Source: an uncultured virus (IMG/VR IMGVR_UViG_3300050821_016519) (taxonomy: Duplodnaviria; Heunggongvirae; Uroviricota; Caudoviricetes). Taken from it: 64,000 bases of DNA. Shown in pieces: positions 4,401 to 54,636 of the stretch. A program made the position numbers and the translations under genes. The stretch lies in the IMG/VR virus record IMGVR_UViG_3300050821_016519. One strand, 5' to 3'. The number at the start of each line of letters is the position of its first letter. Within the stretch, counting starts at the first letter, position 1. Under the pieces are notes generated by a model. The model saw only the letters and a list, made by a program, of their open reading frames with translations. It did no database searches and was not told the origin of the DNA.

Positions 4401-4969
4401 CGACGATCAACGCGGCGACGACCATCACCACCTGGGCGCCCGGCTACGGATCATGGACCAGCAGCATCAGCAACTCCAGCAGCACCACTGGGGCGACCGG
4501 CGCCACGTCTTCCTTCTCGTTGACCGGAACCTGGATGGCGACGACGGCTTGGGCCTCCAACAAGATCGTGCCTCTCGCCTTCGCATCTTCCCTTTCACCG
4601 GGCGATTACTGGATCGGCGTCAACATGGCGTCGAGCACGTCGTCGAGCAGTTCATCTGCCAGCACCAGCGGCGCGGCCGGGAGAACCTTCACCCTGTCGG
4701 TCAACGCCTCGAACCTCACGCTCAGCGGCCAGTTGACTTACGTCGGCTTCACCAATTCGCTCGCGTCTTCTCTTGGCCGGATGGGACAGGGCAGCGCCGC
4801 CACTATGGCACCTTCGCCGGGCCACGGTTCGTTCAGCGCCACCTACTCGCCCGCTTCGACGTACCTGAACAACGCCGGCCAAGCCAACGGCGCCATCGCC
4901 TTCTCTCAGATCAGCACCGCCGGGAGCCTGTTCAAGACCTGGCTGGAATTCGCCAACAACCGCGTCTGA
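1457..4969 (+). CDS. 1170-aa Ser/Thr/Gly/Asn-rich repetitive fibre or adhesin-like virion protein
   Basis: Several internal repeat families (6x QTVQTQNCVD...LAGGNNxTLSQNG, 3x YASSNTF..SGTYDARSISIAGSG, 2-3x FSNSNNVSFGLxGSTITAT). Distinct C-terminal domain. Confidence 0.8.
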   Translation: MPFDQHKNLAYTLVATAPAPASSGTTLVVSAGGGSLFPPVPFNATVWPTGSIPMASNAEIVRVTNVSTDTLTIVRTQEGTSARSIVVGDQIAATITVKTITDIETAFAGTNGAITGGSITVNTSGVSVNLPPYLTTADLSQNSSNYAGVNGAITGGSITVNTSGVSVNLPPYLTTAMQSNAATISNVNISAGATSNNLSALTFSNSNGVSFGLTGSTLTATVATNYQSPGPYLTTAMQSNAATISNINLSAGATSNNLSAVTFSNSNNVSFGLSGSTITATASFAAQSNQSGNVYASSNTFGTSSGTYDARSISIAGSGAVSVAASNSGWVISAPAQTVQTQNCVDATLAGNSTSAGAGYALISSGTMTLAGGNNVTLSQNGNAVTVSAASQTVQTQNCVDVTLSGNSTSAGAGYVLISSGTMVLAGGNNITLSQNGNSVTVSAANAVAQTNQTGNLYASSNTFSSTSGTYDARSISIAGSGAVSVAATNSGWIISAPTQTVQTQNCVDLSLSGNSTSAGAGYILISSGTAILAGGNNITLSQNGQSVTISGANAAAAPVNFSAGANSGNLGSVVFSNSNNVSFGLNGSTITATASQSVQTQNCVDATLAGNSTSAGAGYVLISSGTMTLAGGNNVTLSQNGNAVTVSAFTQTVQTQNCVDVTLSGNSTSAGAGYVLVSSGTLVLAGGNNVTLSQNGNSVTVSAFTQTVQTQNCVDLSLAGNSTSAGAGYALISSGTAILAGGNNVTLSQNGQSVTISAASQTNQTGSVYASSNTFGTSSGSYDARSISMAGSGACSIAASNSGWVVSVPQTSSLSGTGLVSISVNASTISIGVPAYTNSYFEPYEFNVGSATTSGGLGTMFLQPFRLDNYLSFNVVNVIASASLTSTSAANTVTFSNGGASSFNANASYSFTNSNLVDLYLFSRGSGGFTDELWTFASTRNSFVTYEGHTYAFNVTNSTISISSSAAATVSFPSLTSNTMTTINAATTITTWAPGYGSWTSSISNSSSTTGATGATSSFSLTGTWMATTAWASNKIVPLAFASSLSPGDYWIGVNMASSTSSSSSSASTSGAAGRTFTLSVNASNLTLSGQLTYVGFTNSLASSLGRMGQGSAATMAPSPGHGSFSATYSPASTYLNNAGQANGAIAFSQISTAGSLFKTWLEFANNRV

Positions 4970-6159
4970 TGCGCACCTTTTATTTCTACTGCCCGATCCA
5001 CTTTGAGAAGTGGGACCACCGCAGCCCGGAGAATCCGGGGATAGGCGGCTCTGAGACTTCGGTTGTCGAGATGGCCCGTCGTCTTGCCGCTCGCGGGCAC
5101 GTCGTCACGGTCTACGCCCCGCTCCGCGACAACTGCCCCGAATACGACGGCAACGCCCGCTGGCTTCCGCTTGAAGCCGCCGACTTTGCCGCTCCCGGCG
5201 TGTGGGTTTTGTCACGTTGCCCGTCTGCACTGGATAACTTCCCCGTGGACCATCCCGAGCAGACGACGTGGCTTGTCTGTCAGGATGTGTGCTATCCAGA
5301 TCAGTTTTTCGCGAGCGGATGGAAGGACAATCCGCAGGGCATTTCAGCCGAACGGATTACGAAGCTGGATCGATGTCTCGCATTGTGCAAGGCGCAGGCG
5401 GAGTATTTGGTACAGAGGTCGCCGACGCTTGAAGGCAAGATTCACCTGTCGAGCAATGGGATCAACGTCGAGAGAATCGAGGGGATCAAACAGATAGGAC
5501 GTGACCCCTTCAAACTCATCTACTCTAGCAGCCCCGACCGCGGCCTCCCGTCCCTCCTGAAAATCTTCCGGCGTGCCCGCGAGTTCGAGCCGCGACTGTC
5601 CCTCACCGTTGCCTACGGATGGGACAACATCAAGAAGTGCAAGAAAAAGTATTGGGCCGTCCGTAGGGCGTGCGGCGACAGGACAAAGCCGCCAGTCGAG
5701 ATAGACGACCAGGGCAAATACTGGCAGAACGTCGAAGCCGAATGCGGGCCGGGACTGGAACAGCCGGGCGTGACGTGGCTGGGGCGAATCGGGCAGACGC
5801 AGCTCGACCGCGAGTTCCTGTCGGCGGGGCTTTGGGTCTATCCGACGACGTTTACCGAGACATCCTGCATTACCTGCATGTCTGCCCAGGCGTGCGGGGC
5901 AATCCCCATCACCAATCCGCTCTGGGCGCTGGCTGACAACGTGCGGCACGGCATCTTCATCAACGGCGATCCCGCCAACGAGCCGCTGGTGATGGCTCAG
6001 TACGTCCATGAAATCCGCAGGCTGACGAGCGATCTGTCGCTGCAAGAACAGATACGCGGACCCATGATGGAATGGGCTCGCGCGAAGTTCGATTGGGAGC
6101 GGATCGTGGACCAGTACGAGCAGTGGGCGGAAGTGATGGAGGAAGTCGCGTGCTCCTGA
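4969..6159 (+). CDS. GT-B glycosyltransferase (GT4-like)
   Basis: GIGGSET N-terminal motif, YSSSPDRGL, FTETSCITCMSAQACG (ExxxxxxxE-type region). ATG overlaps the fibre stop (TGATG). Confidence 0.85.
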   Translation: MRTFYFYCPIHFEKWDHRSPENPGIGGSETSVVEMARRLAARGHVVTVYAPLRDNCPEYDGNARWLPLEAADFAAPGVWVLSRCPSALDNFPVDHPEQTTWLVCQDVCYPDQFFASGWKDNPQGISAERITKLDRCLALCKAQAEYLVQRSPTLEGKIHLSSNGINVERIEGIKQIGRDPFKLIYSSSPDRGLPSLLKIFRRAREFEPRLSLTVAYGWDNIKKCKKKYWAVRRACGDRTKPPVEIDDQGKYWQNVEAECGPGLEQPGVTWLGRIGQTQLDREFLSAGLWVYPTTFTETSCITCMSAQACGAIPITNPLWALADNVRHGIFINGDPANEPLVMAQYVHEIRRLTSDLSLQEQIRGPMMEWARAKFDWERIVDQYEQWAEVMEEVACS

Positions 6160-6836
6160 TGAACAAATACATCGGCACGGTGGCAAGAATGGGCGGAACG
6201 CCTGCCGTTCTCTCCCCGTTCGTCGATTCCTTTGCCGACCTGATCCAGTGGAACGCGCAATACCTCTGCCTGCCCGGTGAGTGCATCCACTACCCGCGAC
6301 CGCCGCGTGTGAGCATCCACGACGTTGCCCGCAACATCATGGCCGACAACATGCGGGGCGATTGGCTGCTGATGCTTGACACGGACCATGCTTTCGACCC
6401 GGACATCGCTTACCGGCTGCTCAACGTGGCGGATCGCACCGGGGCGGAAGTCGTCACCGCCGTCTACCAGTACAAAGACCCGCCGCACTCTCCGGTGGTT
6501 TTCCGATTGCAGGGCGAAGGGCTTCATCCGGTTGGGGCATGGGATGAGTCGGTCGAGGTCCTGGAGGTCGATTCCGCCGGGGCCGGGTGTCTGTGGGTCA
6601 AGCGGAGCGTGTTCGAGCGAATCGAGGATGAATTGAAAGAGCAGCCGTTCTCCCGTATTTCCGGCTACGGTGAAGACCACTCGTTTTTCCTGCGTCTGAA
6701 GAAACTGAAGATCAAGGCCGTCTGCGCCATGCGCGTCGAGTGCCATCACCTGCAAATGCGGGCGCTATCGCTGGCCGACTACGACCCGGATGTGGTGGAA
6801 CTTCAAGAGCCAGAGATGGCAGTGGGGTATAGATGA
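6159..6836 (+). CDS. GT-A glycosyltransferase-like protein
   Basis: ARN...WLLMLDTDH (DxD), GAGCLWVKRSVF, GEDHSFF. Confidence 0.8.
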   Translation: MNKYIGTVARMGGTPAVLSPFVDSFADLIQWNAQYLCLPGECIHYPRPPRVSIHDVARNIMADNMRGDWLLMLDTDHAFDPDIAYRLLNVADRTGAEVVTAVYQYKDPPHSPVVFRLQGEGLHPVGAWDESVEVLEVDSAGAGCLWVKRSVFERIEDELKEQPFSRISGYGEDHSFFLRLKKLKIKAVCAMRVECHHLQMRALSLADYDPDVVELQEPEMAVGYR

Positions 6837-7219
6837 GCACCGTCGCAACACCTGTTGAAACCTGGACCGCGACGATTCAAGCCGGCATCGGCATCGGGCA
6901 ATCTTCGTCCTTCACATTCACCGTCAACATCACGCAGGCGTGGCAGATCAAGATCCCGATCATCGTTCAGTTCCCCACCAACGTTTCGGCCGGACCGCAA
7001 GTCTTCGCTTATCGCTCGACAGACGGCGGAAACACCTTCGATACGCAGCCGCTTCAACCTCTGGGATTGCCACGCCAGTCAGGCGGTTTGCAGCAGGTCA
7101 GTCTTCGGCTTGAGACAGGGCAGTACGCCGTACAAGTGTTGTCCGGTGGCGGGTCAGTTGCGACGTGGACGGTACAGGTTCAGACTCAGGAAGTCACGAC
7201 CGCGATCATCAACCAGTAA
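6833..7219 (+). CDS. Beta-rich small structural hypothetical protein
   Basis: 128-aa ORF coupled to the previous gene; STDGGNTF (BNR-like) motif. Confidence 0.6.
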   Translation: MSTVATPVETWTATIQAGIGIGQSSSFTFTVNITQAWQIKIPIIVQFPTNVSAGPQVFAYRSTDGGNTFDTQPLQPLGLPRQSGGLQQVSLRLETGQYAVQVLSGGGSVATWTVQVQTQEVTTAIINQ

Positions 7220-7223
7220 CCAC

Positions 7224-8378
7224 ATGACGCCGCTGATGAAAAAGTTCGTCGGCCTCTCAGAGGGGATGGATCAGCGCCCTTCCCGCGACGAGTTTGTCGG
7301 CATAAATCAGGACAGCTTCCAGGCGAAAAATCTGTACGCTTGGTGGCCGATCTGGGAGCCGATGTCCAACGCGGCCAAGGCTCCGTGTGCGATGGACTAC
7401 GGACCTTATGGCCTGCACATGACACCGAGTGTGAACACGCTTCACGCCGGCGATCCTCAGATGGGAACGTGTTGGTTTGGCATTCCCAATCCTGCGGGGA
7501 TGGCGGGGATATTCTCTGGCCAATCTCAGTCGCGGCCCTACGCTTATCAATCTGCGACCTCAGTTGACCCGGTGGATTTCGGAGGAATCCCCGATACCGT
7601 CGTGCTTGGCCAAGCCTACATGGCGACGGCTTGGATACGCACCAGCGACTCAGCGCTCACCTTCACCGCTGGTGACACGCCGCATGACACATATATCTAT
7701 TCCTTCGATCGCAACGACAACTCCGGTTATCCCGGCCACACGATGGGCGTTATCATGCAGATTTATGATGGTTCCGGCGTCAACACCGCCAACGCTGCGG
7801 CCACGATGTTTGACAACAACGAGGGCGGCGCTATTCCGTTTGGAGTGCAAAGCTGCCAAGTAGTCAACGATGGCCAGTGGCATCTGATCTGTGGTCTTTA
7901 CATGCCGTTCTCTACGTCGGGATCGGGCGGCTACAACAATTCGTGGCAAGTGATCCTCGTCGATGGCCAACTCGGCCCGGTCAGCGGTAACGATGTCCAG
8001 GGCGGCGGCCAGCTACAGCCGTTCGGCATATCCAAAAGTCAAGCCAACGTAGGATCGCCGCAGAATGCGGGAAAAGCTGCGATCAACGCGGTATATCAGT
8101 TCATCGGGTCCGATGATGACGGAGTGTCGTCGCCGTTTCTGGGTCTGATCTCGGATCATCGTCTTTACGGATTTTCTGGGTCTGTGGGCTATCCGGGTCA
8201 GCCGGGCCTGGCTGATCCCTTGGCCATCATGTCACAGGGTCTCGCCCTCGCCCAGCATATGTATGCCCCGGAAACGCGCTGGGAACTGTACCGCACGCGG
8301 CCGAATCGGTCGTTCGGAATGGTCAAAGTCGGAGGACCCAAAGGCACCGCGACGATCTTCCTCATCACCCATCCCTGA
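7224..8378 (+). CDS. Concanavalin A/LamG-like lectin-domain virion protein
   Basis: NLYAWWP...AWIR...NDGQWHLICG...LVDGQ...FLGLISDHRLY pattern typical of LamG-like jelly rolls. Confidence 0.6.
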   Translation: MTPLMKKFVGLSEGMDQRPSRDEFVGINQDSFQAKNLYAWWPIWEPMSNAAKAPCAMDYGPYGLHMTPSVNTLHAGDPQMGTCWFGIPNPAGMAGIFSGQSQSRPYAYQSATSVDPVDFGGIPDTVVLGQAYMATAWIRTSDSALTFTAGDTPHDTYIYSFDRNDNSGYPGHTMGVIMQIYDGSGVNTANAAATMFDNNEGGAIPFGVQSCQVVNDGQWHLICGLYMPFSTSGSGGYNNSWQVILVDGQLGPVSGNDVQGGGQLQPFGISKSQANVGSPQNAGKAAINAVYQFIGSDDDGVSSPFLGLISDHRLYGFSGSVGYPGQPGLADPLAIMSQGLALAQHMYAPETRWELYRTRPNRSFGMVKVGGPKGTATIFLITHP

Positions 8379-9136
8379 TGAAACCCCGCCTGCAAAACGC
8401 CGTCATCGATGCCATCGACCCCGCCCAGGCCGGCCGTCACAACGGCGATCTGGCGGCCTCGACCCAGCGTGTCCTGCGCGGAGGGACGTGGAAGAAACAG
8501 CGAATCGCGGTCATCATCCCGGCGGCCGAATCGATTCCTTCACGGGTGTACCTCTCCCACTGCTCCCTCATCTTTCCCCCGAATCAGGGCGTGCATCGAC
8601 ACCTGGCGCTGGGAGAGGAAGTCGGACAGGCGTATTCCAAGGCCATCGAAGACATCCTGGCCCATCCGGAACTGAGCCAGTGGGAATACCTCTTGACGAT
8701 GGAGCACGATAACGCCCCGCCGTCAGATGGGGTTTTGAAGCTGGTGGCGCGGATGGAGGAGCATCCCGAACTGGCGGCGATCTCCGGGTTGTACTGGTGT
8801 AAGGGGGAAGGGGGCGGACTGCCGGGCGGCGTCGGGACTCCGCACATTTGGGGCGACGTGAACGATCCGGTGGTGAACTTCCGGCCCCAGCCGCCTCGCC
8901 CCGGCGAGCTGGTCGAGTGCTGCGGATTATCGATGGGATTCGCGCTCTGGCGCTTGCCCATGTTCAAAGACGCTCGTCTCCGCAGGCCGTGGTTCAAAAC
9001 GCTGGCGAGCAAGGAAGGTGTCGGAACCCAGGATCTGGCGTTCTGGGGGGAAGCGCGGAAGTACGGGTATAGATGCGCCGTCGATTGCGGCGTTCTCGTC
9101 GGGCATTTTGATTCCAACACGGACATGATGTGGTGA
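8378..9136 (+). CDS. GT-A glycosyltransferase-like protein
   Basis: YLLTMEHDN, ISGLYW, GLSMGFALWRLPMF, TQDLAFW, VGHFD. Confidence 0.75.
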   Translation: MKPRLQNAVIDAIDPAQAGRHNGDLAASTQRVLRGGTWKKQRIAVIIPAAESIPSRVYLSHCSLIFPPNQGVHRHLALGEEVGQAYSKAIEDILAHPELSQWEYLLTMEHDNAPPSDGVLKLVARMEEHPELAAISGLYWCKGEGGGLPGGVGTPHIWGDVNDPVVNFRPQPPRPGELVECCGLSMGFALWRLPMFKDARLRRPWFKTLASKEGVGTQDLAFWGEARKYGYRCAVDCGVLVGHFDSNTDMMW

Positions 9137-9753
9137 AATCCAAACGCCGCCCGGCCCCGATTGCGCCAAGTATTGCGCCGCCGATTGCGCCCGCGATTCC
9201 CGCCGTCGCCGCTGCGCCGCTGCTCAAATTGGACTTCGGCTGCGGTCCCCACAAGCGCGAGGGCTTCACCGGATGCGATCGCCATCCCTTCGTCGGCGTG
9301 GATCAAGTGGTCGATCTGACGATCATCCCCTGGCCGTGGAAAGACGCCTCGGTCGCCGAAGCGCATGCCAGTCATTTTCTGGAGCACCTGACGGCGATGC
9401 AGCGCTGCGGCTTCGTCAACGAGCTGTACCGGATTCTCGTCCCCGGCGGCAAGTGCCAGATCATCACCCCGCACTGGTGCAGTGAACGCGCCTATGGAGA
9501 CCCAACCCATCAGTGGCCCCCCCTGAGTGAATTCTGGTATTTTTATTTGAACCGCGAATGGCGCCGGGCCAACGCCCCGCATAGCGACGCCGAAGTCCTT
9601 CCCGGTGGGTTCAACTGCGACTTCGATGCGACCTGGGGCTACTCGATGCGCCCGGACCTGATCGTGCGGAACCAGGACTACCAGCAGTTCGCGTTGGCGA
9701 ATTACAAAGGGGCAGCGATGGATACGATCGCGACTCTTACCCGGAAGGCGTGA
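9130..9753 (+). CDS. Class I SAM-dependent methyltransferase
   Basis: LKLDFGCG motif I, SHFLEHL, ELYRILVPGG, GDPTH. Confidence 0.85.
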   Translation: MVKSKRRPAPIAPSIAPPIAPAIPAVAAAPLLKLDFGCGPHKREGFTGCDRHPFVGVDQVVDLTIIPWPWKDASVAEAHASHFLEHLTAMQRCGFVNELYRILVPGGKCQIITPHWCSERAYGDPTHQWPPLSEFWYFYLNREWRRANAPHSDAEVLPGGFNCDFDATWGYSMRPDLIVRNQDYQQFALANYKGAAMDTIATLTRKA

Positions 9754-11994: not shown

Positions 11995-13227
11995 GTGCCA
12001 GACGTAAATCCCGGAGAGTCTGAGAAATCCTTCGTGGCTCGGGCAATCCCTATCCTCTTGAAAGATGGCACCGCCAAGGACCAGGCCCAGGCCGCGGCTA
12101 TCGCGTATTCGATGTTCCGCAAGCACAACAAGAAAAAGGCCAAGCCCGCAGCGGCCGCCGCCAATGCCGCCGCGCTCAAAGGCCCCTTCGCCGCTCTCCG
12201 CGCTCCGACTGCGTATTCCGATTCCGGCGTCTCCGTCGATTTCGACAACGGGATCATCAAGAACGTCGCGCTCATCACCGAAGGCATCGCCCTGGGCAAG
12301 CCCTTCGACATCGACAAAACCACCGTCGAGCAAATCGTCGCCCTGGTCAACGCTTCCGCCGATGGGATCAAGTGCCGGTTCCGCCATCCCAACGTCAAGA
12401 CCTCCACCGACCCCGAAGGCAACGTGATTCAGGAAGTGGCGGACGACACCGGGACCATGGTGGGACGGATCAAGAATGGCAGGATCGCGACGGTGATGCA
12501 GGATGGCAAACCGGTGGCGCAGGGGAGAGGGGACGTGTTTTTGGGCGATTACGCGAGTGCAGTACCGGGCATGGGCGACGTGCGCGGCTACCTGCTGAAT
12601 TTCGCCAACGAGGACGCGGCCGGAATTGGGCTTAGCGCTTTTTTCCCGTACACCGTCGAACCGATCTTAGACAATTGGGGCGCAATACTTTCTAATCCCG
12701 CCCGCCCCGTTGGGCTTGAGGCTCTGGATTTCGTGGGCAAACCAGCGAGTAACCCCCGCGGCCTGCTCAGTGCCTCAGCCGTCCTCTACGACCCTCAGCC
12801 GCCCTCGGGCGCACCCAACTCCTCCGGCTGGCAGGAGCCCAAGCCCGCCGACAAAGCCAAGGCCCCCATCCCCGCCGGCACCCCTGATCCTCCAAGCTCC
12901 GACGCCGGCCGACCGCCCCGGCCCGCAGCGCCGCCTGAGGCGCCCGTCTTTCCTCACGACACCCGCGGGGCTTATCTGGGCCACATCGTCAAGCACGGCA
13001 TGCAGACCATGGGCTCTCTGGCCTCGCGATTCAACGGACGCTTGGAAGCGATGCGGGCGGGCTGTGAATGGCTGGCGGACAACGGCTATGCCAAACGGGT
13101 GATGGCCCACGGCGGAAGATCGACCGGGTATGAGGCCACGCCCAAGGGTAAAACCGCCATGGCCGCCAACGGCATCTGGCCCTCGCCCGGTGATCCCGTG
13201 CAGGCGCAGAGCACGCCGCGGAAATAA
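11995..13227 (+). CDS. Putative prohead (maturation) protease
   Basis: Directly upstream of the capsid gene; IIKNVALITEG.ALG...GIKCRFRHP...GIGLS...LDFVGKPASNPRGL pattern. Confidence 0.6.
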   Translation: MPDVNPGESEKSFVARAIPILLKDGTAKDQAQAAAIAYSMFRKHNKKKAKPAAAAANAAALKGPFAALRAPTAYSDSGVSVDFDNGIIKNVALITEGIALGKPFDIDKTTVEQIVALVNASADGIKCRFRHPNVKTSTDPEGNVIQEVADDTGTMVGRIKNGRIATVMQDGKPVAQGRGDVFLGDYASAVPGMGDVRGYLLNFANEDAAGIGLSAFFPYTVEPILDNWGAILSNPARPVGLEALDFVGKPASNPRGLLSASAVLYDPQPPSGAPNSSGWQEPKPADKAKAPIPAGTPDPPSSDAGRPPRPAAPPEAPVFPHDTRGAYLGHIVKHGMQTMGSLASRFNGRLEAMRAGCEWLADNGYAKRVMAHGGRSTGYEATPKGKTAMAANGIWPSPGDPVQAQSTPRK

Positions 13228-13470
13228 CAGGACATGGTGGTTCTGACGGTGAAAGCCCGTAAATGCAACGCAAGTCGGGCCTTAAATGGCCAGCAGTGCA
13301 GCCGGAATCGAAACGATTCTGCCGGTGATAACGAGCCCGTGGAAGCCGGCCGGGACCATCCCTCCTGTAAATTAAATTGGCTCCCTTGTGAAACGAACGG
13401 TGGACGCTTGGGCGCGTTAGTCGTCCGCCGTTTTCAGCGCTCGATCGGAGGAAACTCCGGTCGACGCTTT
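13228..13470 (+). ncRNA. Candidate structured RNA between the protease and capsid genes
   Basis: CAGGA/TCCTG closing stem, two related half-domains and further hairpins including a GAAA tetraloop (see findings). Confidence 0.5.
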
Positions 13471-13478
13471 AACCCCCT

Positions 13479-13597
13479 GGTCATTTGTCACTTGTCACTG
13501 GTCACTTGCCAGGGCCGCGCGCCCAAGGGCCTCCCATCCGCGATTGATCGCGGATGGGAACCCTAAACAAATGACCAGTGACCAATGACGAGTGACC
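13479..13597. repeat. Heptamer-arm inverted repeat element (copy 1) with nested palindrome
   Basis: (GTCAYTK)n ... (ARTGACM)n arms; internal CCCATCCGCGAT-TG-ATCGCGGATGGG. Confidence 0.85.
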
Positions 13598-13689
13598 TCC
13601 CCCACCAGCTCTTGAAAACGGCGGTGCATGGACTCGGCGCGTTGCCGGGTCGCAGTTCGTTCTCCCTCTCCATTTTTGAAGGAGTGCAT

Positions 13690-15483
13690 ATGCACCCCCA
13701 TCTCAAGTCACTTCTCGTGGCGAACGGCTGCGACGCCGATGCCTCAGATGATGACGCCAAGTCCTATTACGACGGCCTGTCGGCCGACAAACGCGCCGAC
13801 ATCGACGCCAAGCTCGCGCGCATGATGGACGGCGACGGCGGCGATACCGGCCTGCACGCCGGCCCGCCCGTTCCCGGCCAGCCCTCCGTCGCCGGCAACT
13901 CCGGCGATTCCGGCGCCGCTGGCGCATTGCCCGGCCAGGGCGTGGCCGTCCCCGCCACCGGCATGAGCCAGGAGCAGATCATCAAGCTGGCCACCGAGGC
14001 CGCGATCGCCGCACTGGGCGCCGCCACCGGCGCCAAACTCCCCCAGGGCCAGCGCATGCAAGCGCCGGCGGCCGGCGGTGTCGCCGCCAAGCTGGACGAT
14101 GCCGACAACGACAACGCGGCATTGGATTTCGAGGCAAAAAGAGTGGCCCGCATCCGCAAACTGGCCGCCCTGCACGCCGTTCCCGATGCCTATGCCAATA
14201 CGGTGATCGCGGAAAACGGCACCTTCGAGCAGGCCCGGATGGCCATCCTGCGCTACGTGCACGAGTCGGCCAAGCCGCTCCTGAGCGTGAAGGTGGGCGA
14301 GGACAAGAACCTCGCCAGCCTGCGCGCCGCCATGCCGCAGGCCATCGTGCTCCGCGCCGGACTGGCGGCCGAGCAGATCATCAAATACGAGGGCAAGATC
14401 CTCGATCGGGCCAAGGAACTGCGCGAGCTGTCCATGCTCGACATGTTCCGGCATTACCTGGCGTCCCTTGGATTCACCGAGGTCTACGGCTACTCCAAGA
14501 CCCGCCTGGCCGATTGCCTGGGCCCGCGCCGCATGCGGCAAGCCTTCCCGCGCATGGCGGCGTTGGCGGAATCCACCCCGGATTTCGGCAACATCACGCT
14601 CGACGCGATCAACAAAAGTTTGCGCTTCAACTATCTGGACGCCAAGCGGACCTGGCCCGCCTGGGCGGAGAAGCGCTTCAACCCGGACTTCAAGAACATC
14701 AATCGGGTTGTCCTGTCGGAAGCCCCGAACATGGTCGCGGCCAACGAAGCCGGCGAAATGCAGTACGTCCAGCTCCAGGACTCGAAAGAGACCTACGTGC
14801 TGGTCACGTACAAAGCTGGTGTCCGTTTAACGCGCAACGCCATCATTAACGACGACTTGGATGCTTTTAGCGCAATTCCCAGGGCGCAGGCCAATTCCGC
14901 CGCCCGTAAGGAAGACGACGTGGCCTACGCCGTCATCACCGGCAACGCCAACATGGCCGACGGCAACGCCATCTTCTCCGCCGCCCACAGCAACCTCACC
15001 ACCGCCGGTTCGGGCGGCGTGCCCAGCGTGCTCCAGCTTCAAATCGGCTCGACGGCGATGAAGAAGCAGAAAGGTCTGGCCGGTGCGGCCCGCCTTGAAT
15101 TGGAGCCCAAGTTCCTCCTGGTCCCCTCCTCGATCGAGGAGCAGACCAAGGAACTGATCGGTTCCCGGACCCTGATCGCCAGCCAGTCGTCGTCGGCTGC
15201 GGTGCCGCAGACGGTGGGCGATTTCAACCCCTACAACAACCGCTACCAGGTGGTCGGGAGCGTCCGTCTGGACGATGCCGACACGCAAGCCTGGTTCCTG
15301 GTGGCCGATTTCCGCGACGGACAGGTCAACACCATCGAACTCAGCTTCCTGACCGACGAGCCCGAGCCCGTCATCCGCCAGGAGACCGACTTCGACACCG
15401 AGGACGTGAAATACCTGGTGCGCCATACGGTTGCCGGAAAGGCCATCGACTTCCGCGGCGTCTACAAGAACGCCGGGCATTAA
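13690..15483 (+). CDS. Major capsid protein (Mu gpT-like) with N-terminal scaffold region
   Basis: GAAGGAG RBS; STPDF...INKSLR, PDFK, LTRNAIINDDLDAF, LEPKFLLVP, AWFLVAD, IDFRGVYKNAG. Confidence 0.9.
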   Translation: MHPHLKSLLVANGCDADASDDDAKSYYDGLSADKRADIDAKLARMMDGDGGDTGLHAGPPVPGQPSVAGNSGDSGAAGALPGQGVAVPATGMSQEQIIKLATEAAIAALGAATGAKLPQGQRMQAPAAGGVAAKLDDADNDNAALDFEAKRVARIRKLAALHAVPDAYANTVIAENGTFEQARMAILRYVHESAKPLLSVKVGEDKNLASLRAAMPQAIVLRAGLAAEQIIKYEGKILDRAKELRELSMLDMFRHYLASLGFTEVYGYSKTRLADCLGPRRMRQAFPRMAALAESTPDFGNITLDAINKSLRFNYLDAKRTWPAWAEKRFNPDFKNINRVVLSEAPNMVAANEAGEMQYVQLQDSKETYVLVTYKAGVRLTRNAIINDDLDAFSAIPRAQANSAARKEDDVAYAVITGNANMADGNAIFSAAHSNLTTAGSGGVPSVLQLQIGSTAMKKQKGLAGAARLELEPKFLLVPSSIEEQTKELIGSRTLIASQSSSAAVPQTVGDFNPYNNRYQVVGSVRLDDADTQAWFLVADFRDGQVNTIELSFLTDEPEPVIRQETDFDTEDVKYLVRHTVAGKAIDFRGVYKNAGH

Positions 15484-15486
15484 AGC

Positions 15487-15558
15487 GGTCATTTGTCACT
15501 TGTCATTTGTCATTGGTCAGCGGTCATTCCAAGTGACCAATGACAAGTGACCAGTGAC
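15487..15558. repeat. Heptamer-arm inverted repeat element (copy 2)
   Basis: GGTCATTTGTCACTTGTCATTTGTCATTGG ... CCAAGTGACCAATGACAAGTGACCAGTGAC. Confidence 0.85.
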
Positions 15559-15600
15559 TCCCCTCCTCTTTCCCTCAAACACAAAAAGCGAGAAACAGTC

Positions 15601-15960
15601 ATGATCGTCGGATTCAAACGTGGCAATCGTTACACCTACACCAACAACACCGGGGTGGCGATCGCGAGCAGCCAGCTCCAGATCCTCTCCCCCGGTCCCA
15701 CCACCGGCTTTGTCGGCATCGCCATTACCTCGATCGCTATCGGGGCCTCGGGCGAGCTGGCCATCGGCGGCGGCGACGAGCGCGTCGTCTCCCCCATCGC
15801 CAAAAGAGTCGGCGAAGCCTTCACGGACGGGCAGATCCTCTACTGGGACCCGTTCAATCTGTGGCTTACCGGCACCTCGGGGACCAACACCCGCTGCGGC
15901 CGGTCCTACGGCGTGTTCAACTCCGCCGCCACCACGGCGGCCCTGATCCTCAACGCCTGA
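15601..15960 (+). CDS. DUF2190-like capsid decoration/cement protein
   Basis: Follows the capsid gene; FVGIAITSIAIGASGELAI...AFTDGQILYWD pattern. Confidence 0.75.
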   Translation: MIVGFKRGNRYTYTNNTGVAIASSQLQILSPGPTTGFVGIAITSIAIGASGELAIGGGDERVVSPIAKRVGEAFTDGQILYWDPFNLWLTGTSGTNTRCGRSYGVFNSAATTAALILNA

Positions 15961-15965
15961 TTATT

Positions 15966-43072: not shown

Positions 43073-44299
43073 TCAATTGATCGGACAGGAAACGAACGTG
43101 CTGTAGGCGGCCACGTCCTGCGCCAGCCCCGAATAGACCGGCGTTGAGCCGTCCGGGTTGAGCCCTCGGCCGATCAGGTAGACGGAAAATCTGTTGTGGC
43201 CGGCCATCGCCGTGATGTCGGAGGTTGATGGCCCGTACCCCGGCGCGAACTTCCACTGCGACGATCCTGCGTCGAATGCCCCAAGCCGGTAGATTCGCCC
43301 ATTCAGCAATCCATGAAACGGGCTGCTCAGCGGCATCGTCCCCTGGGCGTCGGCCGCGACAATGACAAACGCGCCTTCGTCGGCCCGCTGGTTCTGAATT
43401 GGATCGGAGAAGCTAATGGTGGCGTCCAGGCTATTCGCATCGGGCGGGATGATCGTGGCCGGGGAACCGGGTGCGGATCGGGACGCTTGCAGGGATGGCG
43501 GCTGAGTGACAACCGCAGGCGGCGTGGGCGATGAGGGAACGGCGGGCACATCAAGGGCCGGCGTTCCGCTGGGGTTGATGGAAGTGGTGTAGGACGTGGC
43601 GTTGCGGTCGGCAACGGCAACAACGATGATCTGAGCAGACGGCGCGTAAGCCAGCGATCGCGTGATGGCGCCGCCGGGCGGGGCAATCACCGTTTCGATC
43701 ATGTCGCGCTTGTAGAATGCCACCCACCCGTATTTCGGGTCGGCGGTCTGCACCATGTTCTCAGAAATCATCGAGCATAGCAGCGCACTCAGATTCGTGC
43801 TGGTGGGCACGGAACCACTGCCGGAAGCCACCGCCGCGACCGGCTCAGCGCCGAATCCGGTTGGGCTGATCGGCATGAAGTCCCACACCTCACCAGGCAC
43901 GATGTAAGTTCCCGGCACCGTGTAGGGCGGCAATGCGTTCGTTGGATCAACAGCGCTGCCGGGCTTGATGGCGTTATACAAGTCCTGATCCGTGAAAAGA
44001 TGAGTGCCGGGAAATTGCACGGTCGGCCGCAGAACGCAGAGCTTGTCGCCAGCAGGAACGGCCGTGGGCGAAATCTGGTAGAAGCTCGTGCTCCCCATCT
44101 GCTGAACGAACGAGACGCCGGTGCGGGCGAGTTGAGCGCCGACCGTCTCTGACTTGCTGGTATCTGCCTGTTTGATGGCCACCGGGAACATGGAAGCCAC
44201 CAGAATGAAGCCGATGCCCAGGATCATGATGGCGAACAGAATCTCGGTGAAGGAAAAACCGCGTCGTGCGAGTGAGTTCGATGTGCGTCCTGCGTTCAT
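43073..44299 (-). CDS. Prepilin-type N-terminal cleavage/methylation domain protein
   Basis: RRG^FSFTEILFAIMILGIGFILVASMFPVAI (G^FxxxE plus TM helix). Confidence 0.85.
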   Translation of the reverse strand: MNAGRTSNSLARRGFSFTEILFAIMILGIGFILVASMFPVAIKQADTSKSETVGAQLARTGVSFVQQMGSTSFYQISPTAVPAGDKLCVLRPTVQFPGTHLFTDQDLYNAIKPGSAVDPTNALPPYTVPGTYIVPGEVWDFMPISPTGFGAEPVAAVASGSGSVPTSTNLSALLCSMISENMVQTADPKYGWVAFYKRDMIETVIAPPGGAITRSLAYAPSAQIIVVAVADRNATSYTTSINPSGTPALDVPAVPSSPTPPAVVTQPPSLQASRSAPGSPATIIPPDANSLDATISFSDPIQNQRADEGAFVIVAADAQGTMPLSSPFHGLLNGRIYRLGAFDAGSSQWKFAPGYGPSTSDITAMAGHNRFSVYLIGRGLNPDGSTPVYSGLAQDVAAYSTFVSCPIN

Positions 44300-44308
44300 G
44301 GTGATCTC

Positions 44309-44512
44309 CTAGTGCTGGGGCTGGGGCGACTGCTGTGGCAAAACCTGCCCGCGGTAAGTATGCGGTCCGACTTCGGCCCGGAGCGAGTCCATTGAGCGGG
44401 CGAGGTTGTCGGGGACCTCGGGAATCGTCGGCCTCGCGTAGCGGCGCTCGGCGATGACGACCATCACTGCGACGATCGCCAGGCAGACGATCAATTCAAA
44501 AAGGCGTTTCAT
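44309..44512 (-). CDS. Small single-TM protein
   Basis: MKRLFELIVCLAIVAVMVVIA; directly upstream of the prepilin gene. Confidence 0.55.
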   Translation of the reverse strand: MKRLFELIVCLAIVAVMVVIAERRYARPTIPEVPDNLARSMDSLRAEVGPHTYRGQVLPQQSPQPQH

Positions 44513-44703
44513 GTTTGCTCTCCGTAGCGCAAGCATCCGCACACAGCGGCTGTCCAAATAACGCGCGAGGCGAGTTTGGCGCTGAGGCGGATGCGTTTCG
44601 TGGTGATTCCGTTTGTGACGCGGGGGGAATCACGTTTTTTGGACAGCGGAAGCCATCATGCCCTTGGTGAGCCGGGCAAGTCAAACAGCAAATAGTAAAG
44701 ACC

Positions 44704-44838
44704 ATGGCCGACCGCACCGAACAGATCACGTTTAAGCTCCGCGCAAAGGACGAAACCGGCGAGGCTTACGACTCGGCCAACAAAAGGCAGGGAAGAACTG
44801 GCGCTCGGCGGCTCGGGGACTTCGCGTCTCCTACTTGA
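44704..44838 (+). pseudogene. Truncated duplicate of the tape measure 5' end
   Basis: MADRTEQITFKLRAKDETGEAYDSA vs MAERTEQITFWLRAKDMTAEAYKSA at 45834. Confidence 0.8.
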
Positions 44839-45760
44839 TCCCGTCGTCGATCGCCTTCATCAACTGGCTGAACGGGTGATCCGGCCGCGGCGCGATCACC
44901 GCCAATTCGACCGCCTGGCCGATCGCCGTGGCGGCGGGCGGGTCTTCATCGAGCACGGCAATCTCCACGACGGTATCCGCCTCGGGCATCGCGCCGTCGG
45001 GCTGGACCAGGAAGGGATGCTGCACCACCTTGTTGGTGGTGATCGATTCGTGCTCCTCGGTCTGTTCGCGCCATTCGGTGGCGTAGGCCAGGCGGGTGTT
45101 GTCGAAGATCATCGCGGACACCCGCGCCCCGTGCGTCTTTCGGACCAGATCGCGCAGCGGATCGGTGCTTTTGGTCGGCCCCAGAAGTCCGACGTCGCCC
45201 TTGTGCAGCGGCCAGGCGAGTTGAAATGAGTTCCGCATGGCATCGAGCATCTGCCCGCGCCACGCTCGGGCATCGGACAATGAATTCGCCAGCGCCGCAA
45301 GCTGGACCTCCTGATCGCGCAAGAGCGCCTGCGAACGGTTGAGGGAATCGTCGCCGGCGATGGCCGCCGTCTCCATCCCGGCCAGGTCCTGGCGGTCGTG
45401 ATTCAGTTGCGAGCTGAGGGCGATGGCCGCGGCTGAATCGTGATCGGCCCGCGCCTGGTTGAGGCGCTGTGTGAGGTCGGCGATCTGGGCGATCTTGCCC
45501 GCCGCGTCTGTGGCGTGCAGCGTGGCCAACCGGGCATCGTGCAGTTTGCCCAAGCGCACCCGTTCATCGGCGATGCTCGAGCGCGCTTCGGCGCAGCGGC
45601 GACCCAGACGCAGAACGTCGCCGTTGATCTGATCCGCCACCTGCTGCGCCGTGCCGTGGGCCCAGCCAAGCTGCCAGGTTTTCCCGTCCCAGGCCGGGCG
45701 CGTCGGCTGTGGACCGGCGGCACACAACAGGACCAGCAGAACCGCGATTGACGTTTTCAT
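44831..45760 (-). CDS. Secreted coiled-coil hypothetical protein (moron)
   Basis: Signal peptide MKTSIAVLLVLLCAA; helical body. Confidence 0.7.
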   Translation of the reverse strand: MKTSIAVLLVLLCAAGPQPTRPAWDGKTWQLGWAHGTAQQVADQINGDVLRLGRRCAEARSSIADERVRLGKLHDARLATLHATDAAGKIAQIADLTQRLNQARADHDSAAAIALSSQLNHDRQDLAGMETAAIAGDDSLNRSQALLRDQEVQLAALANSLSDARAWRGQMLDAMRNSFQLAWPLHKGDVGLLGPTKSTDPLRDLVRKTHGARVSAMIFDNTRLAYATEWREQTEEHESITTNKVVQHPFLVQPDGAMPEADTVVEIAVLDEDPPAATAIGQAVELAVIAPRPDHPFSQLMKAIDDGIK

Positions 45761-51068: not shown

Positions 51069-52142
51069 ATGAAGTCCCAGACCGAAGACGATCGCCTGTC
51101 CCTCTGCCACACCTGCCCATTCGCCCAGCGCCCCTGCTTCGGAGCCTGCGCCTGCACGGTCGATGGCATCGATCTGACGATCCACGCCCAAAGCGGCCAA
51201 TGCCCCAAGGGCAAATACGACGCGGCCGCCCGAGCGCTCGAGGACACCGGCGAAGATTCCTGGAGCTGGCCGGCGCCGCCTGCCCCATCTCCACCGGGGA
51301 GCAAAGGCTGCTGCGGCGAAGAGGTTGCCACGGTCAAGACTGCGATTCTCCAGCCCGGGCGGGCCGGCGACCTGCTGACGCTGATCCCCGCATTTCGCTG
51401 GCTCACCGAACAGGCCCACCGCCGCATCACGCTGCTGGTGGATGAGCCTTATGTGCAGATGTGCGAGCGCTTCGCGTGGATGAAGCAAGTCGTCTGCGAC
51501 TGGACCGGCGGCCCGATGCCGCTTTTCCACCGCGCCGTCGAGGGCGAGTTCGGCCGCTTCGACGAGGTGCGGATCACCACCAACGCCTGGGACCGCCGCG
51601 ACCTGCGCGATTTCATCACCGTGCAATGGGACCGGACCGGCTGCCCGCTGTCGTTCATCGACACCTTGCCGCTGGACGTACACGAATGCCGCGATCCCGA
51701 GGAGCGGCAGATCGTGGAAAAATACGCCCCCGCGTCTCCCCTTCCCCTGGCCCTGTTCAATTGCACCCACTTCCGCAGCGCCGGCCGGCCCGCCGGATTC
51801 GCCCGCGGTGAGGCCCTATTTGCCTTTCTCCAGAAACAGTTCCCCGCGCTGCTGTGGCTCGACCTGGGCTCGTTCCGGGCCCCGCGGATGTATGATCTGC
51901 TGGGTTTGTTCGAGCGCGCGACGGAGTCTGGGGGGGTTCTGGTCGCCAGCGACAACGGCATCCTGCACCTGGGCCGGGTGACGCAGGTCCCCACCATCGC
52001 GCTGGTGCTGGATGACCCGCTCCGCGCCTCGCGAAGATACCCGCACTGGATCGAGAGACTGACCTACGAGGAAGCCGCCCAACCCGGCGGATTCGCATGG
52101 ATACAGAACATTTTGCGGGCGCAACTAAACGGGCACTGCTGA
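51069..52142 (+). CDS. Cys-rich N-terminus + GT9 (heptosyltransferase)-like domain
   Basis: GRAGDLLTLIP, LVASDNGILHLG....VPTIAL. Confidence 0.72.
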   Translation: MKSQTEDDRLSLCHTCPFAQRPCFGACACTVDGIDLTIHAQSGQCPKGKYDAAARALEDTGEDSWSWPAPPAPSPPGSKGCCGEEVATVKTAILQPGRAGDLLTLIPAFRWLTEQAHRRITLLVDEPYVQMCERFAWMKQVVCDWTGGPMPLFHRAVEGEFGRFDEVRITTNAWDRRDLRDFITVQWDRTGCPLSFIDTLPLDVHECRDPEERQIVEKYAPASPLPLALFNCTHFRSAGRPAGFARGEALFAFLQKQFPALLWLDLGSFRAPRMYDLLGLFERATESGGVLVASDNGILHLGRVTQVPTIALVLDDPLRASRRYPHWIERLTYEEAAQPGGFAWIQNILRAQLNGHC

Positions 52143-53380
52143 TCGTCTGTCCCGAGGGCAGCGGCTCGACGCTCTTGAACCGTCTCCTGGAAGCGGCTGG
52201 CTGGCAGTCGTGGAACACCGGCGACCCGCGCCATGATGTTCCGCTCTCGGAGATGGGCCGGCAGATCGTCGTTAAGCGCAGCCTGCCCTACGGCGTGGGC
52301 GACCAGCGCGGCTGGCCGGATTTACCCGTGCTGCGTGGCGAGCTGGAAGCGGCGGGATACGCCGTCGCGCTATTGGTGCTTCTGCGGTCAGGCGAATCGA
52401 CGGTGCAGTCGCAGTTGCGCCGCCAGTACGTTCAGGACAAATCGGAGGGACTGGCCAACCTCGCCTCGGCCCTGCGCCGAATCAGCGAATTTGTCGAGTC
52501 CCCATCCTCCCCTCGTCCCCTCTCCCCTTCTCCCCCTCCTCCCCTACCCTGGCTCCTGCTCACCTACGAGCAGATCATCTACGACTATTCCAGCCTGCGC
52601 CGCGCCCTCTTGACGCTGGGGGTCGATTTGGGCGAGCGGCCGGCGGGAATCCTGCGCGATCCCGATGAACTGCGGCCCGGCGGATGGGACAGCCCCAAGG
52701 CCGACCTGAGCGGGGTCACGCTGGTTTGCATCGACACCAATCATCCCGAGCAGGGCTGCGCCGCGGTCAATCGCACCCTGCGGCACTGCCAGGTCGATAA
52801 GGTGATGTTCCTTGCCCCGCGGCGCCCGAAGGCGCTGCCCGTCGATGCCGCCTATGTGAAGATCGAGCCGTTCGCCAGCGTCTACGACTATTCCCGCTTC
52901 GTTCTCGAGGAGCTGCACCGCTTCATCGACGCGCCGCACTGCCTGATCGTGCAGAGCGACGGCTTCGCGCGGAATCCCTCGACCTGGAGCCGGGCGTTCC
53001 TCGACTACGATTACGTCGGCAGTCCGTGGCACTGGCAGGATCAATGGATCGTCGGTAACGGCGGCTTCTCCCTGCGCAGCCGCAGGTTCCTTCAGGAGAC
53101 AGCGAAACTCGGCTACGGGCGCATGGAGCATCCCGACACGCCGGTCCCGCCGGCTGAGCACTGCGAGGACTGGTTCAGTTGCGTGTTCTGCCGTACCACG
53201 ATGGAGGCGGCGGGAATTCGCTTTGCCCCGGTGACGGTGGCGGCGCGGTTCAGCTTCGAGTGTCATCAGCCGCCGCCGCACCCCTGGCCGGAGGATCGCC
53301 GGCTGACCTTCGGCTTCCACGGCGAGCGGGCGATCGAGTTGTTGCGCCAGCAGTACGGGGTCGATGTATGGAACGAATAG
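52097..53380 (+). CDS. Sulfotransferase-like P-loop domain fused to a DUF5672-like GT-A domain
   Basis: PEGSGSTLL...LLLTYE; C-terminal HCLIVQSDGF...FLDYDYVGSPW...VGNGGFSLRS...FGFHG. Confidence 0.72.
   Translation: MDTEHFAGATKRALLIVCPEGSGSTLLNRLLEAAGWQSWNTGDPRHDVPLSEMGRQIVVKRSLPYGVGDQRGWPDLPVLRGELEAAGYAVALLVLLRSGESTVQSQLRRQYVQDKSEGLANLASALRRISEFVESPSSPRPLSPSPPPPLPWLLLTYEQIIYDYSSLRRALLTLGVDLGERPAGILRDPDELRPGGWDSPKADLSGVTLVCIDTNHPEQGCAAVNRTLRHCQVDKVMFLAPRRPKALPVDAAYVKIEPFASVYDYSRFVLEELHRFIDAPHCLIVQSDGFARNPSTWSRAFLDYDYVGSPWHWQDQWIVGNGGFSLRSRRFLQETAKLGYGRMEHPDTPVPPAEHCEDWFSCVFCRTTMEAAGIRFAPVTVAARFSFECHQPPPHPWPEDRRLTFGFHGERAIELLRQQYGVDVWNE
52503..52550. repeat. Pyrimidine-rich repeat inserted in frame
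   Basis: Encodes SSPRPLSPSPPPPLP. Confidence 0.65.
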
Positions 53381-54636
53381 CCGTGGAACGAATCGTTCAC
53401 ATCTTCCATGAGCACTCCCCCAAGAGCGACGATGAGCGGCGCCGCAACGACAACGCGGTCAAGACCTGGGGCAACGAAGAACGGGTGACGCTCAAGCCGA
53501 TCGCGCCACGGCGCGCCTTCGGCGACGATGCCCGCCGCGTTCCCTACCTGAAAGACATCTTCGATTATGGCTGCTGGGGCGAACCCGAGGAAACGATCGT
53601 TGTCTGGACCAACTGCGACGCCTGCCTGGTTCCCGACGCCTACGAAGCGGTGCGCCAGACGATGGCGGAGGGCAAGAACGACGCCTGTTATTCCGGGCGG
53701 ATCAACGTCGTCGACGCCAGCAACGTCCCCCCGTCCTATGTGTTCGCTTTCGACGATCCGACCGCAGGCACGGACTTGATCGCCTTCCGGCCGCACTGGT
53801 GGCGCAGAGTCCATCGCGAGGTGCCGGATTTCCTGATCGCCGCCGAAGCCTTCGACGCCTGTCTGACCAAGCTGATCGAGCGCGACAGTCACGCCCCCGA
53901 TCGCGGCGGCATCTCACGCCGCCTGGTCTACCACGAGGATCACGGCCCGGCCTGGTGGGAGACGCACCGCAAGCATCCCATCTCGCTGCACAACCGCAAA
54001 TCGGCGGCGCAGTTCGCCCGCGATGTAGGCATCCCGCTGTTCGAGGGCGAGGACGGCTGGGCGGAAATCGACTGGTCCAAAGGGGGCAAATGGCGCAGTG
54101 TAGATGCGCGCCTGCGCTTCGACCGCGAGCTTTCATCCCTCCTGGCCGACACCTTCATCGAAACCGGCTGCGGCAAAGGGCGCAACCTCAAGACGGCATT
54201 GCTGGCGGGATTCAAAGAGGTCATAGGGATCGAGCAGGACGGCAAGCTCGCCCAAGAGGCCGCGAATATTTTTGGCGTCGCGGCGGTGATCCTGTCTCAA
54301 GACAGCCGCAAGTTTCTCTTTCCGCGGGGGCCGGAGGGGTCGCCGATGGGTCCGACGGCGCTGACGGTGCTGCTGGACGCCAATTTCGACCGGGCTCAGA
54401 ACGGCTTGCCGGCCTGTCCGGTGCTGGAGGAGCTGGCCGCCCTGCGCGAAACGGGGGCGCGGGTGATCGTGACCAACTCCGATATTTACTTCCCTGAGCG
54501 CTGGGAGGGACGCAAGTTCCACGTGCATCACGATGCCGGCGACTGGCCGACCCTGGAACAACTCCAGACGGCCCTGGGGGAGGGTTATTCGTGGATCGAG
54601 CGGGGGACGTTTCTGGTGGCCGAGCCCACAGCCTGA
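53368..54636 (+). CDS. GT-A-like domain fused to a SAM methyltransferase-like domain
   Basis: VPYLKDI, VWTNCD, GTDLIAF, YHEDH; C-terminal FIETGCGKG...VIGIE...LLDA. Confidence 0.7.
   Translation: MERIAVERIVHIFHEHSPKSDDERRRNDNAVKTWGNEERVTLKPIAPRRAFGDDARRVPYLKDIFDYGCWGEPEETIVVWTNCDACLVPDAYEAVRQTMAEGKNDACYSGRINVVDASNVPPSYVFAFDDPTAGTDLIAFRPHWWRRVHREVPDFLIAAEAFDACLTKLIERDSHAPDRGGISRRLVYHEDHGPAWWETHRKHPISLHNRKSAAQFARDVGIPLFEGEDGWAEIDWSKGGKWRSVDARLRFDRELSSLLADTFIETGCGKGRNLKTALLAGFKEVIGIEQDGKLAQEAANIFGVAAVILSQDSRKFLFPRGPEGSPMGPTALTVLLDANFDRAQNGLPACPVLEELAALRETGARVIVTNSDIYFPERWEGRKFHVHHDAGDWPTLEQLQTALGEGYSWIERGTFLVAEPTA

Follow-up and report, generated by a model that had tools for sequence, protein, structure and literature searches.

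Why does a tailed phage keep a large set of glycan-building genes among the genes for its particle, and on what would the encoded enzymes act? The question is raised by a 64,000-nucleotide stretch of DNA, referred to below as the window, from an uncultured virus of the Caudoviricetes (IMG/VR record IMGVR_UViG_3300050821_016519). Between positions 4969 and 54636 it carries 20 plus-strand genes with 15 candidate glycosyltransferase (GT) domains, six methyltransferase (MT) domains and one sulfotransferase-like domain. We consider it fairly probable that these enzymes O-glycosylate virion proteins with methylated sugars, and that they do so as a stack of recurrent modules. A sequence-only reading of the window, made without database searches, had proposed virion glycosylation. 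This is now the best-supported reading because of gene neighbourhoods, homology to the mycobacteriophage proteins Che8 gp108 and Corndog gp35, and best fold or profile matches to GTs with proven or presumed protein acceptors, i.e., it is drawn from sequence comparison and structure models.

Virion glycosylation as such is known already, and so is a phage with 13 GTs, the cyanophage S-SCSM2R (PMC12801897). Proof of it is described for three groups of mycobacteriophages with few GTs each (PMC12363180, PMC11600133, PMC12619734). New here are the size of the toolkit inside a virion gene region and its breakdown into recurrent modules, as well as its occurrence in a Planctomycetota bin and the finding that one module has a branch in Patescibacteria. 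The literature searched, mostly titles and listings, yielded no description of a fibre–GT–MT module shared with Patescibacteria or of the GT trio described below.

The glycan genes and the fibre module

Genes are named here by the window position at which they begin. The glycan genes lie in three blocks (4969–9753, 16413–31253 and 51069–54636), all co-oriented on the plus strand as first noted from the sequence alone. They total 15.5 kb, i.e., 31% of 4969–54636 and 12.8% of the phage contig, and fill 58% of the middle block. Ten of the 20 overlap the preceding gene or are separated from it by at most 2 bp. Direct contact with a putative structural gene is limited to three (4969, 8378 and 51069), and other genes break up the middle block (see below); the claim of genes mostly translationally coupled with structural genes was thus overstated.

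About 15 GT open reading frames (ORFs) had been counted by eye. Ten of these gained support from our tools (seven well, three weaker or transitive), one matched only a domain of unknown function, DUF5672, and four were called on motifs or company. A clear direct match to a GT family was limited to four of the 15 candidates (4969, 6150, 23260 and 30154). The five to six S-adenosylmethionine (SAM) MT domains seen earlier fared better: all six matched a family, two of them weakly, and the TylF-type O-methyltransferase was recovered as 27430 (27430–27963; PF05711, 8.9e-16). Three further proteins (18482, 22610 and 24944) matched nothing in Pfam, PHROGs or NCBIfam and were left out of the glycan-gene count.

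The maximal 19-residue hydropathy was at most 1.53 in all 20 enzymes, i.e., they have no membrane segment, which agrees with the absence of GT membrane anchors noted before. Moreover, no flippase, polymerase or membrane GT was found among 154 ORFs scanned with Pfam, and nucleoside diphosphate (NDP)-sugar dehydratase had no match on the phage contig vs 19 in the genome bin that contains it; also in this respect the sequence-only reading held. The bin encodes adenosine 5'-phosphosulfate kinase, which is not on the phage contig.

The first block follows a repeat protein of 1170 residues (1457–4969, plus strand), half of which are Ser, Thr, Asn or Gly (50%). It is a likely fibre and, by inference, a likely glycan acceptor. 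Neither this protein nor the putative tail-tip proteins 49467 and 50271 had a convincing Pfam or PHROG match, and the labels "fibre" and "tail tip" of the earlier reading thus stand on composition and position. N-glycosylation of the fibre was considered and rejected: we counted 35 N-x-S/T sites vs 33.0 ± 4.8 expected, and such sites were likewise at chance level in 11 other structural candidates. With no excess of such sites in the fibre, an O-linked glycan is more likely.

The stop of the fibre gene overlaps the start of a GT4-like GT-B gene (4969–6159; PF13439 8.5e-11, residues 25–61 only; PF00534 1.2e-3). A GT2-like GT-A gene (6150–6836; PF00535 1.1e-6, phrog_34859 4.4e-7) and a gene for a 384-residue protein (7224–8378), possibly a fibre tip, come next. 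The latter protein had no Pfam or PHROG match; we take it to be LamG-like from a motif. Its gene abuts 8378 (8378–9136), a GT-A gene that overlaps the gene of a SAM methyltransferase, 9130 (9130–9753; phrog_6636 5.7e-12). Fibre, GT 8378 and MT 9130 together are called the fibre module here.

The structure model of 8378 (pLDDT 75.5) had its best Foldseek match, at 7.9e-10, in protein A197 of Sulfolobus turreted icosahedral virus (STIV). In VIA, A197 aligned with Z 17.6 and a root-mean-square deviation (rmsd) of 2.5 over 170 residues at 16% identity; human LH3 and mimivirus R699 were the fold matches after A197. Conserved in the 8378 family are E109-x-D111, D219 and H243.

We collected loci solely by homology to 8378, 11 from viral contigs (same element excluded) and 38 from genomes, and dropped one (L086) as identical to L085, which left 48. 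A 9130 homologue was located at most 4 kb downstream in 44 of these (42 of the 44 with at least 1 kb of downstream sequence), and a 1457 homologue upstream in 23. More generally, a gene of at least 150 codons whose product has at least 38% Ser, Thr, Asn and Gly ended at most 1.5 kb upstream in 39 of the 48 loci vs 30 of 95 control genes located farther downstream in the same loci, a comparison with descriptive value only, as the loci are kin. Two loci (L048 and L049) have an NDP-sugar dehydratase between GT and MT, a hint that the MT methylates a sugar. The phages carrying the module vary in head type, with P22-like portals and several capsid families in the flanks, and one locus (L212) holds fibre, 8378, 9130 and the GT trio in one run. 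The fibre is the best-supported candidate acceptor, because a Ser/Thr-rich protein is encoded next to the GT and MT in phages as well as in bacteria.

The bacterial copies are mainly from Patescibacteria, i.e., 23 of the 38 genome records with an 8378 homologue are titled as lineages of this group. In a quick tree of the 8378 family (47 rows, SH-aLRT support only, three of 49 loci omitted as partial or interrupted), a branch with support 100 set 20 Patescibacteria rows and five others apart from the rest. Two Patescibacteria-titled copies (L056 and L063) fell inside the phage-rich side, possibly by phage–bacteria exchange in either direction. Neighbours of the Patescibacteria-side copies included a type IV secretion system coupling protein, TatC, ABC transporters, pyrimidine enzymes and a tRNA synthetase, and among 63 neighbour proteins scanned (of 89 around six bacterial-side loci; five loci covered) none matched a phage structural family. 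The Patescibacteria-side copies look chromosomal.

Middle and tail-end blocks

Three GT candidates of the middle block, here called the trio, recur in other phages. They are 19195 (19195–19836), 19955 (19955–20710) and the GT-B enzyme 23260 (23260–24345; Glyco_trans_1_2, PF13524 5.8e-29), all on the plus strand like the other enzymes of this block. The model of 19195 (pLDDT 87.8) matched CHSY3-CHPF best in VIA (Z 11.4, rmsd 3.5, 154 aligned residues), and all 50 best rows were GT-A or nucleotidyltransferase-like folds; Foldseek gave no match below 1e-3 (best E 1.4e-3). A GT-A fold with an acidic metal-binding motif was found in 8378, 19195 and 17796, and for 19195 this fold also occurs in nucleotidyltransferases. 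For 19955, a likely GT-A enzyme, the family has an invariant D102-x-D104-E105, and its profile matched GmaR at 2.8e-4.

Relatives of 26636, a further GT candidate, led us to loci that also contain homologues of 19195, 19955, 23260, 25672, 28304, 30154, DUF5672 and 16413. With the 19195 profile we found 435 related viral stretches, and with the 19955 family 112. The best 80 of the 435 comprised 78 non-self loci, which formed 24 clusters at 60% identity; 19195 was accompanied by 23260 in 21 of these, by 19955 in 14 and by DUF5672 in 7. We then assigned the flanks by PHROG matches at 1e-8, scanning 185 of 251 script-picked proteins from 23 representatives plus two added, with the flanks of L222 taken from the overlapping locus L116. 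Virion or packaging genes stood on both sides in nine of the 24 clusters (L205, L207, L212, L213, L215, L227, L237, L262 and L264), a figure that has no baseline, comes from related loci that are not independent and was obtained in viral collections enriched for virion genes. They stood on one side in seven more (L208, on the opposite strand, L222, L224, L225, L236, L240 and L272).

The trio sites elsewhere were after the capsid gene, in the portal–capsid gap, after the fibre, before the terminase or apart from virion genes. Because its position varies so among phages, the trio is not tied to one virion part, and of the idea that each virion part has a separate enzyme set, only the fibre block remains as support. 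Larger sets of families also stay together: L205 and L116 keep six and seven middle-block families, respectively, the six of L205 between protease and capsid genes, and in L097 the block precedes the genes for an SU10-type portal and a capsid protein. Searching 140 other genomes of the host order, we found no member of the 19955 family.

The block begins with 16413 (16413–17024), a PF03407-like GT-A candidate (E 0.02; homologue in L101 4e-6), whose homologue in a contig of the same phylum, L121, directly follows the capsid and cement genes. The viral GT2-like GT-A protein 17796 (17796–18485) was found among viral GT2-like clusters of the ESM Atlas (features 0.97–0.99, TM 0.69–0.89), with TM 0.69 to the PF00535 part. 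The likely GT-A 26636 (26636–27373) matched chondroitin synthase by profile at 0.012, and two of its homologues weakly match PF00535. Better defined is the GT-A 30154 (30154–30714; phrog_14775 3.3e-31). It is followed by 30711 (30711–31253), an enzyme-like protein and GT candidate with 604 homologues, some of them doubled, whose 72-row family profile matched nothing in Pfam or PDB. A GT-A-like fusion partner occurs in three of five long homologues examined, and in P0030 a 16413-like GT is fused to a 30711-like domain (checked by alignment). We regard the 30711 family as a candidate for an undescribed transferase family. Protein 28304 (28304–29074) is GT-B-like by eye only, without family match; homologues occur in four of the 24 trio clusters and in L116–L118.

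Four MTs belong to this block, i.e., in addition to the TylF-type 27430, a SAM methyltransferase-like protein (22003–22617; PF13489 7.6e-6, just under the cut-off), a Methyltransf_24 enzyme (24342–24947; PF13578 9.8e-11) and a Methyltransf_24-like enzyme (25672–26130; PF13578 4.5e-5) with homologues in 13 of 23 non-self 26636 loci. Further searches added little: tblastn against isolated phages gave nothing for 26636, 30711 and 19955, PDB searches with family profiles A4, A5 and A8 gave nothing useful, hhalign of profile A2 vs A1 was not significant, and single-protein scans of viral contigs with 23260 and 30154 returned the same element only.

The tail-end block has few relatives. Its first gene (51069–52142, plus strand) is a GT candidate which we take to be GT9-like from a motif only; its one homologue, P0024, is fused to a domain like the N-terminal one of 53368. 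The second (52097–53380, plus strand) encodes a sulfotransferase-like P-loop domain fused to DUF5672 (PF18922, 2.2e-19). The N-terminal domain resembled viral Sulfotransfer clusters in ESM Atlas features (0.93–0.95), with a structural score under the naming bar; a RapZ-like P-loop fold aligned as well, and Pfam gave no match. The sulfotransferase-like domain proposed earlier thus keeps its resemblance to a family without a family match, and sulfation would rest on this fold resemblance. The third gene (53368–54636, plus strand) joins a GT-A-like domain, called on motif only, to an MT-like domain (NF000499 0.0028, residues 259–322). Comparison of its N-terminal domain with the 19195 family by hhalign was not significant (E 0.064). 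In another phage, two PHROG matches to galactose-3-O-sulfotransferase (L213:12040–13423) are located beside a GT block between portal and protease genes; by family match, sulfotransferases do occur in such GT blocks.

Phage contig and host link

The window corresponds to C425:377–64376 (reverse) within a 7.0-Mb bin. At 121,544 bp, C425 is the longest contig of the bin, and a terminal repeat was not found. Judged by its genes, it is a lambda-like temperate phage contig within a Tepidisphaerales (Planctomycetota) bin, whose RpoB is 84–94% identical to Tepidisphaerales-titled records. IMG/VR contains the same element (L004), which does not count as independent evidence. The phage–host link rests on binning. 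Tetranucleotide correlation of the phage contig with the bin was 0.987, at the low end among 43 other large contigs, and the phage CsrA is 78% identical to the bin copy. Two small bin contigs, C137 and C62, carry homologues of the small terminase and protease of the phage and look like phage satellites. Additionally, C137 has a 50271 homologue and, by eye, integrase-like genes, and C62 has homologues of 16075 and 45834.

Two DNA methylases and an IS1595 transposase are encoded on C425 upstream of the window, and so are an integrase-like protein, a resolvase and ParA, which make lysogeny plausible. The gpA-type terminase, also upstream, is in two pieces: the large subunit is split into two frames at the Walker B region (C425 ~72,690; L001:6884–8870), both parts matching GpA_ATPase. 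This may reflect a defective prophage, a programmed frameshift or an assembly error. The lambda-like portal was called from its position and from homology to the gene preceding the capsid gene in related loci. It has 1147 residues (window 41–631; C425:63746–67189) with a long Pro-rich C-terminal extension ending inside the window, and a short portal-like fragment recurs at 35192–35410.

The major capsid protein (13690–15483, plus strand; PF25209 7.3e-42, phrog_4523 2.4e-96), a possible acceptor, is followed by a head cement or decoration protein (15601–15960, plus strand; PF09956 5.6e-11). Pfam or PHROG matches further identified a head–tail protein at 31324 and a tail protein at 39116. An insert in the tail region (41628–45760, minus strand) encodes a phrog_19090 protein with an MT-like motif seen by eye, a protein with a prepilin-type N-terminus (TIGR02523, 3.7e-4) and a coiled-coil-like protein. 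Other genes in the window are a dual-specificity phosphatase (21005–21376), a histidine phosphatase (31759–32577) and CsrA (56462–56719).

An alternative genetic code was rejected, as translation table 11 yields a sensible gene map; stop readthrough raised coverage on both strands. Scanning 13000–32900, we found two promoters vs 4.3 expected and 17 terminators vs 15.4 expected, i.e., none above chance. One RNA run contained 7% of the sampled words; 17 short contig pieces fall on 12000–31900 but are possibly DNA and cannot show expression.

Substrate of the enzymes and likeness to known systems

If the enzymes act on the virion, late-expressed soluble GTs would take host NDP-sugars, together with SAM for the MTs, in the cytoplasm and would modify Ser/Thr residues of virion proteins while the particle is assembled or earlier. 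GT 8378 would add a sugar to Ser/Thr of fibre 1457, and MT 9130 would methylate the fibre-bound sugar. Capsid, decoration or tail proteins would receive a longer glycan from the middle block, to be capped by its four MTs; the tail-end block may contribute another glycan, which is possibly sulfated. Homology to phages whose virions are described as glycosylated, Che8 and Corndog (PMC12363180, PMC11600133), is consistent with this mechanism. In a phmmer search of the 89 window proteins, Che8 gp108 matched 30154 with its GT half (6.5e-17) and 27430 with its second half (5.9e-13), and Corndog gp35 matched 27430 (5.4e-15). Homologues of 30154 occur in 63 actinophage records; one of them, LittleE gp15, directly follows the capsid gene and precedes three annotated GTs before the connector.

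Several observations weigh against virion glycosylation. Che8 gp110 and Corndog gp38, which are called essential for capsid glycosylation (PMC12363180), had no match at E 0.05 in the same phmmer search, and none of six window-family profiles matched them, a negative at the sequence level. A Ser/Thr-rich tail is missing from the C-terminus of the capsid protein. Four GT candidates (28304, 30711, 51069 and the N-terminal domain of 53368) had no support as GTs from our tools. The middle block is broken by minus-strand ORFs (17059–17630 and 26133–26609) and holds unrelated genes (phosphatase 21005, helix-turn-helix 29062); a single coupled operon spanning the toolkit is not demonstrated. In eight of the 24 trio clusters (L206, L211, L214, L216, L219, L223, L249 and L270) virion genes were not found in the tested flanks, and some relatives (L101 and L105) sit in clusters with NDP-sugar enzymes, similar to the cyanophage clusters that are interpreted as host-surface modifiers (PMC7824862). 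In 28 loci of distant capsid relatives, many of them short, no homologue of these GTs and MTs was seen. Finally, with the terminase split at Walker B the element may not make virions.

As the foremost alternative, which we regard as unlikely, the enzymes would modify the host envelope (lipopolysaccharide, capsule or surface glycoproteins) in lysogeny or infection to block other phages or grazers, and their location would be explained by moron insertion. Cyanophage GT clusters have been interpreted as host-surface modifiers (PMC7824862, PMC12801897). Lysogeny is plausible from the integrase-like protein, resolvase and ParA, and the eight trio clusters without virion neighbours, the fibre module in Patescibacteria chromosomes and the prepilin-like gene in the tail region fit it as well. 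However, none of the 154 ORFs was recognised as a flippase, polymerase or bactoprenol GT, the 20 enzymes are without membrane anchors, all 20 genes are co-directional with the late genes, and the 19955 family was not found in the 140 other host-order genomes. Moreover, a Ser/Thr-rich protein is encoded beside the fibre module in phages and bacteria alike, which suggests that this protein is the substrate.

Improbable as well is a partial function, where mainly the fibre module acts on the virion and the other genes have accreted as cargo, or are decaying, in a prophage that may be defective. Against it, none of the 20 ORFs is interrupted, those aligned have homologue-like lengths, and L205 and L116 hold six and seven middle-block families together; the split terminase, the IS1595 transposase, the portal fragment at 35192, the unrelated genes in the middle block and the few relatives of the tail-end block speak for it. 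Very improbable is hypermodification of the phage DNA, with the GTs adding sugars to hydroxymethylated bases: there is a C5 cytosine methyltransferase on the contig (C425:117082), trio locus L249 has a gene of the hydroxymethylcytosine (HMC)-glucosyltransferase family and structural genes are sometimes found beside clusters for DNA glycosylation (bioRxiv 10.1101/2023.12.21.572611), but the C5 methylase is more than 50 kb away from the GTs whereas genes of such pathways tend to cluster (same source), no window GT matched the HMC-glucosyltransferase PHROG, thymidylate synthase had no match in assembly G000 (control matched in 10 of 14 genomes), and no dioxygenase was found by Pfam among the 154 ORFs (PF12851 matched neither here nor in 14 controls).

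Virion glycosylation by stacked modules hence remains our preferred reading. A wider view is tentative and less likely than not: tailed phages beyond Actinobacteria may widely glycosylate their particles with interchangeable modules, of which this phage would stack three (giving fibre, head and tail end separate methylated or sulfated glycans), and the fibre–GT–MT module may be the system with which Patescibacteria modify surface filaments of their own, a cytoplasmic route of protein glycosylation that phages and ultra-small bacteria would share. If these families act on virions, glycosylated particles would be a common trait of phages in soil and water, where selection by antibodies is no explanation; candidates are host recognition, matrix adsorption and grazing. 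The three-gene fibre module is small and soluble and names its likely substrate, which brings a test in E. coli within reach even though the phage is uncultured. The same approach would assign a function to a recurrent surface locus of Patescibacteria.

Serine-rich repeat adhesins are surface filaments that are glycosylated in the cytoplasm. Serotype-converting Gtr and O-antigen clusters are marked by a membrane GT, flippase or polymerase, hallmarks that had no Pfam match among the 154 ORFs; in the 20 enzymes no hydrophobic segment exceeded 1.53. The cyanophage GT and NDP-sugar clusters of P-SSM2 and S-SCSM2R are similar in GT number per phage (PMC12801897). They carry sugar-synthesis enzymes of their own and are interpreted as host-surface modifiers (PMC12801897, PMC7824862); the present contig has no such enzymes, and its GTs stand among virion genes. 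STIV A197 (PDB 2c0n), the best fold match of 8378, is a small soluble viral GT-A enzyme using host donors; it is described as essential, with the STIV capsid protein as a possible, still unproven acceptor (PMC10551542). In contrast to the present set, it is a single GT of a non-tailed virus. In Listeria, the N-terminal domain of GmaR glycosylates flagellin (PMC9638930), i.e., a soluble GT is dedicated to a filament protein, as proposed here. No accessory secretion genes were recognised here, and the match of 19955 to GmaR is a weak one that is confined to the N-terminal half.

Virion O-glycosylation of mycobacteriophages, for which Freeman et al. 2023 is reportedly the primary paper, is the closest comparison. 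It is described for Che8 gp108–110, Corndog gp35–38 and Myrna (PMC12363180, PMC11600133, PMC12619734), and three GTs encoded after an O-methyltransferase modify capsid and tail tube (PMC11600133). In contrast to these phages with three to four GTs, the present one has 15 GT candidates and six MTs, belongs to a Planctomycetota and not to an actinobacterial bin, and shows no gp110 or gp38 homologue and only a weak trace of gp109; the actinophage regions examined were without the fibre-linked module. Common to both are soluble phage GTs with an O-methyltransferase, the matches of 30154 and 27430 to both halves of gp108, and the placement of such genes among head genes in Corndog and LittleE. Judged by the essential enzyme, the phage would not be a member of the mycobacteriophage system, but by analogy it probably works like it.

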